Positions 7,312 through 9,449 of a stretch of 64,000 nucleotides of DNA are shown one piece after another (position 1 is the first letter of the stretch; the number at the start of each line of letters is the position of its first letter). The position numbers were made by a program, and so were the translations under genes. The notes beneath the pieces were generated by a model. It was not told the DNA's origin, searched no databases, and saw only the letters and a program-made list of their open reading frames with translations. This DNA comes from Escherichia phage vB_EcoM-pEB20, in the sequence record OP114733. One strand, given 5' to 3'.

Positions 7312-7804
7312 GTTTTTGACTAGCGAAATGAAGGTTAAGATCGCTGATACTGCTCGGTACTCGTTGAAACAAGATCCAGGTCAAATAAAAGAAGACGTTG
7401 TTCGACGTTGTAAGGTCGCAGTCTTTGCAGAGTATGTAGTAGCAAATTGGCTAGACGGATATGTTAATAAAGGTAATGAAGACGTAGAAGACCCGTACAC
7501 GTATGCATGGGACGTTTTAGCTCATCCTAAGTACTGTGGTCTACGCGTAGAAGTAAAGACCCATCAGATGGATTCGAAATGGATTTCGGTTACCACAGGA
7601 TACGGTGGTGATTATCCGGGTGGTAATGGAATCAATATAGGGCCCTTCTTGAATCATCGAGTCGCAGATTGCATTATTATATTAGATGTCAAAGAAACCT
7701 CACCTGACGTCTTCTCTTATTCTATAAAGTTCGTGGGAGATCATGAAGACCTAAAGAAAATCGTCCGCAAGAGCAACTACAACGGGTGGTATCTTCATCT
7801 TTAA
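7247..7804 (+). CDS. denB: endonuclease IV (denB)
   Basis: Conserved core EMKVKIADTARYSLKQDPGQIKEDVVRRC...NYNGWYLHL matches recalled T4 EndoIV; start placed at ATG 7247 (AGAGG RBS 5 nt upstream) giving 185 aa, the T4 length; ORF track begins at 7151. Confidence 0.75.
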   Translation: MVKTNLGLLRLKSLPTFILSNEFLTSEMKVKIADTARYSLKQDPGQIKEDVVRRCKVAVFAEYVVANWLDGYVNKGNEDVEDPYTYAWDVLAHPKYCGLRVEVKTHQMDSKWISVTTGYGGDYPGGNGINIGPFLNHRVADCIIILDVKETSPDVFSYSIKFVGDHEDLKKIVRKSNYNGWYLHL

Positions 7805-7816
7805 TTTCATAAAAGT

Positions 7817-7846
7817 GTTTACAACTAAGTAGGACTATGATATAGT
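7817..7846 (+). promoter_or_regulatory. early sigma70-type promoter (GTTTAC-N18-TATAGT)
   Basis: T4 early promoter consensus; 7-bp inverted repeat AGGACTA/TAGTCCT (7831-7837 / 7846-7852) brackets the -10. Confidence 0.6.
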
Positions 7847-7872
7847 AGTCCTATCTAAAAGAGGATAACATC

Positions 7873-8136
7873 ATGAAATTTAAATTTTTCTACGCAAAAC
7901 ATAAAGTAACAGGCGAATTTGTTTCAATGTACAACACCGCAGATGACGAAGGGATGATTTATACCCATTTGGGACTATCTCATTGGGACTCAGACGTGCC
8001 TTATATGTCATCTGAAGCCGAAATAACTCGTTTAGTTAATGGACATATGAACGACCATTTTGGTGTTATTCTTTCTAAAGACCTTAAAGAGGTTATCAAC
8101 AAAGGATATATGGAACTCGCGGAAGTTGAGATATGA
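7873..8136 (+). CDS. hypothetical protein (87 aa)
   Basis: ORF with AGAGGA RBS, preceded by early promoter at 7817-7846. Confidence 0.55.
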   Translation: MKFKFFYAKHKVTGEFVSMYNTADDEGMIYTHLGLSHWDSDVPYMSSEAEITRLVNGHMNDHFGVILSKDLKEVINKGYMELAEVEI

Positions 8137-8219
8137 GCTCTAAAATGTGGATAGGAATATGGTTGCTTAGTATCCCAATGATTTGTATAATATTTTCAAT
8201 TGTGTTGAGGTACTTATGA
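8133..8219 (+). CDS. small hydrophobic peptide (28 aa)
   Basis: ATGA overlap with upstream stop; MSSKMWIGIWLLSIPMICIIFSIVLRYL is a single predicted TM helix; below ORF-track size cutoff. Confidence 0.3.
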   Translation: MSSKMWIGIWLLSIPMICIIFSIVLRYL

Positions 8220-8326
8220 AAAATGCACTTCTTATTGTACTAAGAACAATTTGTGATACGGGTTTTTACATTGCATGTTCGTTCACTGGAACATGGTTGG
8301 CTTTAACATATTTTAATGTAATTTAA
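8216..8326 (+). CDS. small hydrophobic peptide (36 aa)
   Basis: ATGA overlap with previous small ORF; hydrophobic sequence MKNALLIVLRTICDTGFYIACSFTGTWLALTYFNVI. Confidence 0.3.
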   Translation: MKNALLIVLRTICDTGFYIACSFTGTWLALTYFNVI

Positions 8327-8328
8327 TT

Positions 8329-8358
8329 GTTTACATCACGGTAGGATTATGGTATAGT
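8329..8358 (+). promoter_or_regulatory. early promoter (GTTTAC-N18-TATAGT)
   Basis: consensus match; inverted repeat GTAGGA/TCCTAC flanks the -10. Confidence 0.6.
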
Positions 8359-8386
8359 AGTCCTACTGAAACATGAGGAACACAAA

Positions 8387-8587
8387 ATGGCTAAGCTTTT
8401 TAAAGATGTTGAAATTGGTGAAAAATTTGTTCTGAATAATGGTCAGCAGCTTATTCGTGTAGCTTCTATAGCCGGACAAACTCATAACTGTATCGCCCCA
8501 ACGTGTTGGACTCGATTCTTTATTGAAGATGACACTGAATGTTTAACTGTTGAAGAGCTTTTTGAACGTTCTGATATGGCCGAATAA
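8387..8587 (+). CDS. hypothetical protein (66 aa)
   Basis: ORF with GAGGAA RBS; preceded by early promoter 8329-8358. Confidence 0.5.
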   Translation: MAKLFKDVEIGEKFVLNNGQQLIRVASIAGQTHNCIAPTCWTRFFIEDDTECLTVEELFERSDMAE

Positions 8588-8589
8588 AA

Positions 8590-8619
8590 TTGTACAAACT
8601 CTTGAGAGCAGAGTATAAT
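8590..8619 (+). promoter_or_regulatory. early promoter upstream of ndd (TTGTAC-N18-TATAAT)
   Basis: consensus match; 8-bp inverted repeat TGAGAGCA/TGCTCTCA (8603-8610 / 8620-8627) brackets the -10. Confidence 0.6.
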
Positions 8620-8663
8620 GCTCTCATGGATTACAAAAACATTAATCAATTGAGGAAATTAGC

Positions 8664-9110
8664 ATGTCCAAATATTTAACTCGTAAAGACCTTCTGGCAG
8701 TTGGTGGTGAAGTTGTTGCAGTAGTTCGTAATGGCGAATACGGTTCCGAAGTTTCTAAAGAGTTTCGTTCTCGTGAAGGTTTTTACTTCTTTGTTAAAGG
8801 TTCATCTGATTGGCGACAAGTAGCAGCACGGTTCTTTGTAGGACGTCAACGTTCTAAACAAGGGTTGGATGCAATTCTTTCTCACATTCGTCAAGGCCGT
8901 TCGCAACTAGCCCGTACCATGGGCACTAACAATATTGAATATGATGTAATCTTTGTTGCAGCTAAGAACATGAAACCACTGACCACTGGTTATGGTAAAG
9001 GTCAATTGGCTCTAGCATTCACTCGCAACCATACATCAGAATATCAAACACTCACTGAAATGAACCGTCTTCTGGCTGATAATTTCAAATTCATTCTGCA
9101 GAGTTACTAA
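8664..9110 (+). CDS. ndd: nucleoid disruption protein Ndd
   Basis: 148-aa ORF; [46 protein letters not shown]...[12 protein letters not shown] matches recalled T4 Ndd. Confidence 0.85.
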
Positions 9111-9162: not shown

Positions 9163-9309
9163 ATGATAGCATGGATTATTGCATTGCTGTGTTGGACATT
9201 TTTATTCGTTAGCACTTTAGTTACAGGCGAAACAACAGTATTTCAACAGGCCATATCACAAGGCACCTTAGCGGTCTTAGCTCTTCTTAACGTGTTAAAA
9301 GGCGAGTAA
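9163..9309 (+). CDS. small membrane protein (48 aa), ac/stp locus position
   Basis: Hydrophobic ORF MIAWIIALLCWTFLFVSTLV...; lies between ndd and gene 52. Confidence 0.35.
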   Translation: MIAWIIALLCWTFLFVSTLVTGETTVFQQAISQGTLAVLALLNVLKGE

Positions 9310-9449
9310 TGATTAAGAAAATCTTAGCAGGAGCCTTCGGGCTCTTGTTGTTGCTTACGGTTCTGTACTACGGTGTGATGTTTGGACTAATCCAAGTAGT
9401 GCTTTTCATTTCAGATGTTATAATGGATATTCGTTCATTAATATGGTGA
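9309..9449 (+). CDS. small membrane protein (46 aa)
   Basis: Start overlaps previous stop; hydrophobic GAFGLLLLLTVLYYGVMFGLIQVVLFI. Confidence 0.35.
   Translation: MIKKILAGAFGLLLLLTVLYYGVMFGLIQVVLFISDVIMDIRSLIW

Follow-up and report, generated by a model that had tools for sequence, protein, structure and literature searches.

On balance, we regard the two micro-ORFs that lie between denB and the ndd cluster of Escherichia phage vB_EcoM-pEB20 as genuine early accessory genes, and the product of the first of them is in our view most likely, with moderate confidence, a small inner-membrane modulator that packs against a partner. This first ORF, of 28 codons, is assigned by profile match, alignment and gene order as the orthologue of the T4/T2 gene ndd.6 (NP_049886, UniProt P39248, phrog_8851). 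Both micro-ORFs are already known, as ndd.6 has long stood in the T4 annotation and the second ORF, of 36 codons, is annotated in most Mosigvirus records.

The window, that is, the whole 64-kb stretch of record OP114733 that was analysed, belongs to an RB69-like Mosigvirus, a T-even phage of the Tevenvirinae, and over 150 Mosigvirus genomes share 98-99% identity with its positions 7800-8700. The early strand is here the + strand, and the gene order on it is rIIB, denB, 87-aa ORF, 28-aa ORF, 36-aa ORF, ndd.1, ndd, ac, 52.1 and gene 52. The initial annotation had described, in a T-even early region, two tandem micro-ORFs chained to the 87-aa ORF by ATGA overlaps. The region is indeed the denB-ndd interval on the early strand, and the coordinates and frames of the chain were confirmed (Table 1). 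No sizeable or competing ORF was seen on the opposite strand of the micro-ORF stretch. By their arrangement, the three ORFs form one unit between two near-identical PeSL-type cassettes (promoter-early stem-loop), the second of which starts 4 nt past the stop codon of the 36-aa ORF. The unit is presumably transcribed in the first minutes of infection.

Table 1. Coordinates of the features of the ndd.6 unit in the window
Feature	Position	Strand	Description
Upstream PeSL-type early promoter/stem-loop	7818..7853	+	TTTACA-17-TATAGT; inverted repeat TAGGACTA/TAGTCCTA around the -10 box; precedes the Shine-Dalgarno sequence AAGAGGA of the 87-aa ORF
87-aa ORF (RB69ORF270c, phrog_2390)	7873..8136	+	First cistron; TGA 8134-8136 overlaps the start of the 28-aa ORF (ATGA)
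28-aa ORF, assigned as Ndd.6 orthologue	8133..8219	+	ATG 8133, TGA 8217-8219; peptide MSSKMWIGIWLLSIPMICIIFSIVLRYL
GAGGT, putative Shine-Dalgarno sequence of the 36-aa ORF	8207..8211	+	Supplied by codon Arg26 (AGG) in the 28-aa ORF
36-aa ORF (phrog_18561)	8216..8326	+	ATG 8216 overlaps the TGA of the 28-aa ORF (ATGA); peptide MKNALLIVLRTICDTGFYIACSFTGTWLALTYFNVI
Downstream PeSL-type early promoter/stem-loop	8330..8365	+	TTTACA-17-TATAGT; inverted repeat TAGGATTA/TAGTCCTA; ends the unit, predicted to drive ndd.1

The profile phrog_8851 matches the 28-aa ORF with E=3.7e-11, residues 1-28 falling on profile positions 1-28 of 28, and in a tblastn comparison the ORF is 53.6% identical to T4/T2 ndd.6 across 28/28 residues. 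Its synteny is also that of ndd.6, with denB on one side and the ndd cluster on the other. A tblastn search for the family returned 758 records with the 28-aa ORF as the query and 748 with its Dhakavirus version, and the frame is kept in ∼750 records of Tevenvirinae, which cover at least six genera. Ndd.6 is conserved throughout the Tevenvirinae infecting enterobacteria. Homologues were extracted from six genera: they are 28 aa long in Mosigvirus and Tequatrovirus and 29 aa long in Dhakavirus (JS10) and Gelderlandvirus (CGG4-1), and they start with TTG in Gaprivervirus (VR20) and Kanagawavirus (IME523). In an alignment of nine sequences representing the six genera, residues M1, S3, W6, W10, I14, P15, and C18 are invariant, and the 28-aa ORF has the motif of the family, M-S-S-x2-W-x3-W-x3-I-P-x2-C, whose members are 28-29 aa long. 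As T4 Ndd.6 has no internal methionine and the N-terminal M-S-S is conserved, translation appears to begin at codon 1. The homologue in Yersinia phage P8 has a frameshift at the 3' end.

Between genera, synonymous sites of ndd.6 are near saturation, with pS of 0.5-0.76, while pN is only 0.11-0.37. This shows that the amino acid sequence of Ndd.6 is under purifying selection. The dN/dS ratio lies at 0.07-0.11 among JS10, CGG4-1, and VR20, and at 0.3-0.5 for Mosigvirus against the others; it exceeds 1 only when Mosigvirus, T4, and T2 are compared with the divergent Kanagawavirus copy. Inside Mosigvirus, in 11-13 sequences picked for diversity, pN/pS is 0.28, with four of the nine changes synonymous (P=0.06). 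Judging from these comparisons, the 28-aa ORF is a gene, and neither a chance ORF nor a mere leader.

That such ORFs would be missed by standard annotation had been suggested initially, and this applies to only one of the two. The 28-aa ORF is annotated in one of the ten Mosigvirus records inspected, and the RefSeq record of RB69 lacks it. On the other hand, ndd.6 is annotated in T4, T2, JS10, and JS98 and is present in PHROGs, and a CDS for the 36-aa ORF is found in ∼40 of the 55 annotated Mosigvirus records sampled. Phage 55 annotates both ORFs alike, as "putative transmembrane protein." Scans of Pfam and NCBIfam returned no family for the 28-aa peptide, the 36-aa peptide, or the 87-aa ORF, and in a profile search of the PDB with Ndd.6 the single match, ATP synthase subunit c (E=2.2), was put down to chance.

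The 36-aa ORF has a single PHROG match, phrog_18561 (E=1.4e-29), and tblastn finds it in 152 records, all of them Mosigvirus-like. Its peptide has a basic N-terminus (K2, R10), and the C-terminal 20 residues are rich in aromatic residues and moderately hydrophobic. It occupies the position of T4 ndd.5, directly after ndd.6, with an ATGA overlap and a GAGG Shine-Dalgarno sequence. The window, T4, and T2 share the junction TGAGGTnnTTATGAAAA in front of the second ORF, and the N-terminus can be aligned with that of Ndd.5 (NP_049885, UniProt P39247, phrog_5011), MK--NALLIV in the window corresponding to MKILNSVLIA in T4, or MK(IL)N[AS][LV]LI. The DNA alignment with T4 ndd.5 covers the first 8-10 residues only. 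A Smith-Waterman comparison of the 36-aa peptide with T4 Ndd.5 gave a score of 22, with a mean of 19 for shuffled sequences (z=0.78), and there was no profile match of the ORF to phrog_5011. The two products also differ in family and length (phrog_5011 and 32 aa in T4, phrog_18561 and 36 aa in the window) and in hydrophobicity, the best 19-residue Kyte-Doolittle mean being 2.17 for T4 Ndd.5 and 0.98 for the window peptide. Homology to Ndd.4, Ndd.2, or Ndd.6 was ruled out (z<0.5). We treat the 36-aa ORF as the positional counterpart of ndd.5 and as a probable, much-diverged orthologue of it, not as an established member of its family. By its distribution and divergence, it is specific to its lineage and evolves faster than Ndd.6. 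In JS10, CGG4-1, VR20, and IME523, representing Dhakavirus, Gelderlandvirus, Gaprivervirus, and Kanagawavirus, there is no second ORF, and ndd.6 leads directly into the next promoter.

The initial annotation proposed conservation of the reading frames in relatives as a check. The 28-aa frame is disrupted in none of the Mosigvirus records, and 150 of the 152 retain an uninterrupted 36-aa frame. The two exceptions are PECP20 and KAW3E185, which have different backgrounds and in which one G is missing from the GGGTTTTT run at 8260-8267 (G3T5), leaving a truncated peptide of 29 aa. This deletion may reflect either a genuine loss or an error in sequencing the homopolymer. Some other records have an in-frame deletion of 3 nt in the 36-aa ORF, yielding a peptide of 35 aa.

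These observations bear on whether the 36-aa ORF has a function of its own. It is conceivable, although we consider it rather unlikely, that only Ndd.6 is functional and that the second ORF is decaying or non-functional, or matters merely through the passage of ribosomes. Its peptide is weakly hydrophobic and, by the best 19-residue measure, ordinary among short ORFs; its similarity to T4 Ndd.5 ends past the N-terminus; the identical deletion of one nucleotide truncates it in two different backgrounds; and it is absent in four genera. Moreover, seven of its 16 changes inside Mosigvirus are synonymous, an excess that is not significant (P=0.05; 11-13 sequences). On the other hand, the frame is nearly always intact, the recurrent indel preserves it, pN/pS is 0.38, a good Shine-Dalgarno sequence and the ATGA start are kept in both Mosigvirus and T4, and the truncating deletions fall within the G3T5 run and are possibly sequencing errors. 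As the peptide is a marginal transmembrane candidate, is frameshifted in these two phages, and is missing in four genera, its contribution may be small even if the ORF is, as we prefer to think, a genuine accessory gene.

The overlaps themselves suggest how the micro-ORFs are translated. Where an ATGA overlap precedes ndd.6, the predicted duplex with the anti-Shine-Dalgarno sequence is weak, at -3.6 kcal/mol in the window, -2.7 in T4/T2, and -2.9 in JS10; elsewhere it is strong: the overlap-free CGG4-1 has -7.1 and VR20, with its TTG start, -12.9 kcal/mol. In T4 and T2, an 8-codon mini-ORF, MKI(A/V)EIEL* (MKIAEIEL* in T4), is homologous to the last eight codons of the 87-aa ORF, MELAEVEI*, and this relic still ends in ATGA on the ndd.6 start. 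The Shine-Dalgarno sequence of the 36-aa ORF, GAGGT, forms a duplex of -6.9 kcal/mol. The AGG/GAGG junction is restricted to the lineages that have the second ORF, where the good Shine-Dalgarno sequence and the ATGA start are conserved; genera without this ORF have TGG/ATG AAA at the junction, with a lysine codon AAA one codon later (position 27) and no Shine-Dalgarno sequence. Given the weak Shine-Dalgarno sequences at the overlaps, the relic retained in T4/T2, and the occurrence of the AGG Shine-Dalgarno sequence only together with the second ORF, we infer that translation of the unit proceeds by termination-reinitiation coupling at its ATGA overlaps. Likewise, the terminal Arg AGG codon of Ndd.6 presumably acts as the Shine-Dalgarno sequence of the second ORF. 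The 8-codon leader of T4/T2 would be a neat natural test case for such coupling.

RNA structure does not account for the conservation, as the ORF junctions fold no better than shuffled sequences (z from 0 to +1.5) and no Rfam family matches the region. An RNA-based explanation was ruled out on these grounds.

The first cistron of the unit, the 87-aa ORF, is itself well conserved, with pN/pS of 0.11 inside Mosigvirus, where 16 of its 23 changes are synonymous and seven are not (P=3e-7). It is present in Mosigvirus, Dhakavirus, and Gaprivervirus, and homologues are found upstream of ndd.6 in JS10, VR20, and P8. T2 and CGG4-1 have an unrelated ORF of 68-83 aa in its place, and in T4 it is deleted, leaving the 8-codon relic. 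A search of IMG/VR with the 87-aa ORF yielded three close loci only.

The unit is flanked by two promoter-like sites, 7818-7846 and 8330-8358, which in a promoter scan are of the T4 early type with 10/12 matches, and an inverted repeat of 8 bp surrounds the -10 box of each. Exactly two copies of the 25-nt core GTAGGAyTATGrTATAGTAGTCCTA are present in the window, with 0 expected. In T4-type phages, PeSL cassettes combine a promoter with an attenuator and bring about the shuffling of small ORFs (Arbiol 2010; Comeau 2014; PMC2839356, PMC4122927). The window copies, which are putative cassettes, resemble them in having TTTACA-N17-TATAGT and a stem-loop that overlaps the -10 box, followed by a Shine-Dalgarno sequence and a start codon, while their stem, TAGGAyTA/TAGTCCTA, is specific to the lineage. 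The turnover of genes around ndd.6 agrees with the picture of PeSL shuffling.

In the initial annotation, each micro-ORF was taken to encode essentially one transmembrane helix; this is borne out for the 28-aa peptide, but the 36-aa peptide is only moderately hydrophobic. The hydrophobic helix of Ndd.6 spans residues ∼5-25 of 28. The peptide has a GRAVY value of 1.61, a best 19-residue Kyte-Doolittle mean of 2.62, and a simple sum of deltaG(app) on the Hessa scale of -1.8 kcal/mol. It ranks first by the best 19-residue hydrophobicity (top 0.5%) and second by GRAVY in a set of 191 short ORFs, which comprises the ATG-ORFs of 25-45 aa from the six frames of the window. The values are comparable to those of KdpF and AcrZ of E. 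coli and of the neighbouring Ac and 52.1. By all these measures, Ndd.6 is a strong candidate for a single-helix transmembrane peptide. The 36-aa peptide, with a GRAVY value of 1.07, is in the top 7% of the same set; its best 19-residue mean of 0.98 is equalled by one third of the short ORFs, and its simple Hessa sum is +3.5 kcal/mol. It may form a marginal helix that needs a partner, or may lie at the membrane interface.

RefSeq names both Ndd.6 and Ndd.5 "outer membrane protein." We consider this wrong, as the hydrophobic stretch makes up the whole peptide, there is no lipobox, and nothing would be left after cleavage of a signal peptide. For Ndd.6, an outer-membrane or lipoprotein reading is excluded by the sequence, which has no lipobox [LVI][ASTVI][GAS]C, the invariant Cys18 being preceded by P-x-[IV].

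The conserved positions of Ndd.6 recur at a spacing of i+4 (6, 10, 14, 18, and 22), which would place them on one face of the helix. The conservation moment at 100 degrees is 0.121, with a mean of 0.063 for shuffles, a borderline result (P=0.05) obtained with six sequences only. A single conserved face is expected for packing on a specific transmembrane partner, and not for a pore-former. In the model that we favour, Ndd.6 would insert into the inner membrane, probably with the N-terminus out and the C-terminus in, and the face W6-W10-I14-C18-S22, together with P15, would pack on a transmembrane helix of a partner protein. A host protein might serve as the partner, as might the co-translated second peptide. 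The latter could accordingly be either a partner made together with Ndd.6 or an independent, faster-evolving add-on. The effect would be a conditional benefit, non-essential in laboratory hosts.

What is known of T4 bears on the last point. Transcripts of T4 ndd.5 and ndd.6 have been classed as early, and the proteins were undetected in the T4 proteome (Wolfram-Schauerte 2022, Table S2). Hydrophobic peptides of 28-32 aa are difficult to detect in proteomics. In a CRISPRi-ART screen, knockdowns of ndd.5 and ndd.6 of T4 were scored as "Not Fit," that is, had no fitness effect in the laboratory host (Adler 2025, supplementary file 15). The T4 deletion sa-delta-9, which removes 52.1 through denB including ndd.1-6, is viable, with about half the normal burst, and loses the stimulation of phosphatidylglycerol synthesis that follows infection; in the same paper, the ndd.1-6 products are given as unknown (Kutter 2018). 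The viability of sa-delta-9 and the neutrality of both knockdowns argue for an accessory status of the micro-ORFs. As regards Mosigvirus AV110, the available part of a 2026 screen of 45 early proteins makes no mention of the 28-aa and 36-aa ORFs. The AV110 "Emp" preprint was considered and set aside, since its subject is a protein of 109 aa encoded beside motA.

Two other functions in the membrane can be envisaged. The peptides might be membrane-damaging effectors, similar to type I toxins or holins, that oligomerise, dissipate the proton motive force, and aid the early shut-off of the host. Their size and hydrophobicity fall within the range of TisB-type toxins, and they are early; many small immediate-early genes of T4 are lethal for the host once cloned (Kutter et al.). 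However, Ndd.6 has no amphipathic or charged face, and its conserved Trp, Pro, Cys, and Ile at i+4 resemble a packing surface and not the lining of a pore. Moreover, a phage depends on an energised host during early infection, there are no reports of toxicity for ndd.5 or ndd.6, and their knockdowns are neutral. We consider this function improbable.

Alternatively, the peptides could act in superinfection exclusion, which the initial annotation had suggested together with host takeover, or in evasion of defence at the membrane, by blocking DNA entry of a second phage or by neutralising a membrane-acting system of abortive infection. Membrane proteins are abundant in the rIIB-denB-ndd-ac-52.1 block, to which the locus belongs, and the neighbouring rIIA/rIIB, which act against RexAB, provide an analogy. 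Conditional anti-defence genes typically leave fitness in a laboratory strain unaffected, as is the case for ndd.5 and ndd.6 of T4, and the rapid turnover of the second ORF is what one sees in an arms race. Against this, Ndd.6 is conserved and not diversifying, and superinfection exclusion in T4 is attributed to Imm and Sp. A role of this kind is hardly probable, and a modulator packing on a membrane partner remains our preferred reading.

One specific partner was considered. From residue 5 on, Ndd.6 reads MW..xW..[S/C]IP.IC, similar to MWY..W..G.LL.C of CydX/AppX (sequences of CydX and AppX were checked against PDB 6RKO_X and 7OSE_C). As a mimic of these small subunits, Ndd.6 would fill or disturb the CydX site of CydA/AppC in the host cytochrome bd oxidase and thus retune respiration early in infection, with the ATGA-coupled second peptide as a lineage-specific partner. 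Ungapped BLOSUM scores are 2-5 z units above composition-preserving shuffles, CydX and AppX are the two best non-family matches of an Ndd.6 HMM among 419 sequences (417 decoy ORFs, CydX, and AppX), and in hhalign the probability is 85% for AppX and 56% for CydX, compared with 11% for the highest-scoring of 421 decoys. In addition, the lipid phenotype linked to the sa-delta-9 region is likewise caused by respiratory poisons (Kutter et al.). If the mimicry were real, it would indirectly alter the synthesis of membrane lipids, which is the sa-delta-9 phenotype. However, one of 330 composition-preserving shuffles of AppX equals the observed score, none of the Ndd.6 members retrieves a CydX-type family in Pfam scans with E up to 1 and 10, neither CydX nor AppX comes up in an unbiased PDB profile search (E up to 10), and CydX had been chosen post hoc. 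Tyr3 and Gly9, which are conserved in CydX, are not kept in Ndd.6. The resemblance is thus below significance and is a lead only, and we think mimicry of CydX/AppX very improbable.

As it stands, the finding matters little, since it rediscovers annotated hypothetical genes. Still, it has some use for annotation: the 28-aa gene should be added to most Mosigvirus records, including the RefSeq record of RB69, and the name "outer membrane protein" should be corrected. Further outputs are the sequence evidence for translational coupling, the PeSL-bounded cassette, and the testable but weak idea of a CydX mimic. Ndd.6 is among the smallest strongly conserved genes of T-even phages, and if a membrane target were defined for it, part of the unexplained set of early genes would gain a function; the lipid-synthesis phenotype that maps to the sa-delta-9 region might then be accounted for as well.

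Among known systems, the closest is Ndd.6 of T4/T2, with which the window peptide shares its length of 28 aa, the position downstream of denB on the early strand, the motif MSS..W...W...IP.IC, and an ATGA-coupled second micro-ORF that comes next with a 4-nt overlap (ndd.5 in T4/T2). The difference is that the window copy is preceded by the intact 87-aa ORF, of which T4 retains only the 8-codon relic. Outside phages, AcrZ, KdpF, CydX/AppX, MgrB, and MgtS are peptides of 28-50 aa that consist of essentially one transmembrane helix and act by packing on a larger membrane protein. Ndd.6 differs from these bacterial regulators in being encoded by a phage and expressed early in infection, and the likeness is one of analogy, not of established homology; in size and hydrophobicity, Ndd.6 is comparable to these small single-pass regulators.

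A 25-nt core of the PeSL type, an early promoter/stem-loop cassette in which the stem-loop lies over the -10 box, is present in two near-identical copies, and no others were found in the 64-kb window. The copies are direct repeats 512 bp apart and exactly bracket the unit formed by the 87-aa, 28-aa (ndd.6) and 36-aa ORFs, which is therefore a candidate for a cassette mobile by recombination. The early promoter 5' of ndd, the third listed below, has around its -10 box an inverted repeat of its own, GAGAGCA/TGCTCTC.

Promoters and small reading frames around the three-ORF unit and in T4 and T2
Feature	Location	Description
PeSL-type promoter/stem-loop core, copy 1	window 7829-7853	25 nt
PeSL-type promoter/stem-loop core, copy 2	window 8341-8365	25 nt
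Third early promoter	window 8591-8626	upstream of ndd; inverted repeat around the -10 box
ac	window 9163-9309	48 aa; hydrophobic micro-gene
52.1	window 9309-9449	46 aa; hydrophobic micro-gene
8-codon mini-ORF, T4	T4 locus 878-904	MKI(A/V)EIEL*
8-codon mini-ORF, T2	T2 locus about 1578-1604	MKI(A/V)EIEL*

Both T4 and T2 are without the 87-aa gene and have kept an 8-codon mini-ORF homologous to the final eight codons of this gene, and the ATGA at the start of ndd.6 still terminates it. Judged by its sequence, the mini-ORF looks like a relic leader retained for translational coupling. In a metagenomic Mosigvirus contig from IMG/VR, the 87-aa ORF has a premature stop, W38* (equivalent to window 7985); if real, it would leave ndd.6 there uncoupled from upstream translation.

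The ndd.6 homologues of VR20 (901-990 of its locus), Yersinia phage P8 (901-975) and IME523 have a TTG start codon, which in VR20 and P8 forms part of a TTGA overlap. In P8, moreover, the gene has lost 1 nt close to its 3' end and so encodes a 24-aa peptide with an altered C-terminus.

As for the 36-aa ORF, PECP20 and KAW3E185, two different Mosigvirus backgrounds, carry an identical 1-nt deletion in a G3T5 run (equivalent to window 8260-8262) that cuts it to 29 aa, and in KAW3E185 the five nucleotides TAATT are additionally duplicated close to the stop, after window 8318. These indels are either genuine losses or homopolymer sequencing errors. The same ORF contains a terminator-like hairpin (window 8274-8295; 7-bp stem CATGTTC/GAACATG, weak T-tail), which may well be a chance match.

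Several database labels in this region are propagated annotation errors: "naphthalene 1,2-dioxygenase" on homologues of ndd, ndd.1 and ndd.4, and, without support from the sequences, "outer membrane protein" on Ndd.6 and Ndd.5 (GenBank OL964735, OP870147, PP693301 and OK272473; RefSeq T4 and JS98). Shigella phage JK45 (NC_054940) is assigned to Tequatrovirus by RefSeq, yet in this region it shares 99.0% identity with the Mosigvirus window and its gene content is that of Mosigvirus; we consider the record either misclassified or mosaic.

Just 5' of gene 52, ac and 52.1 overlap by 1 nt; like the 28-aa and 36-aa ORFs, this pair encodes chained small membrane peptides of the same kind.
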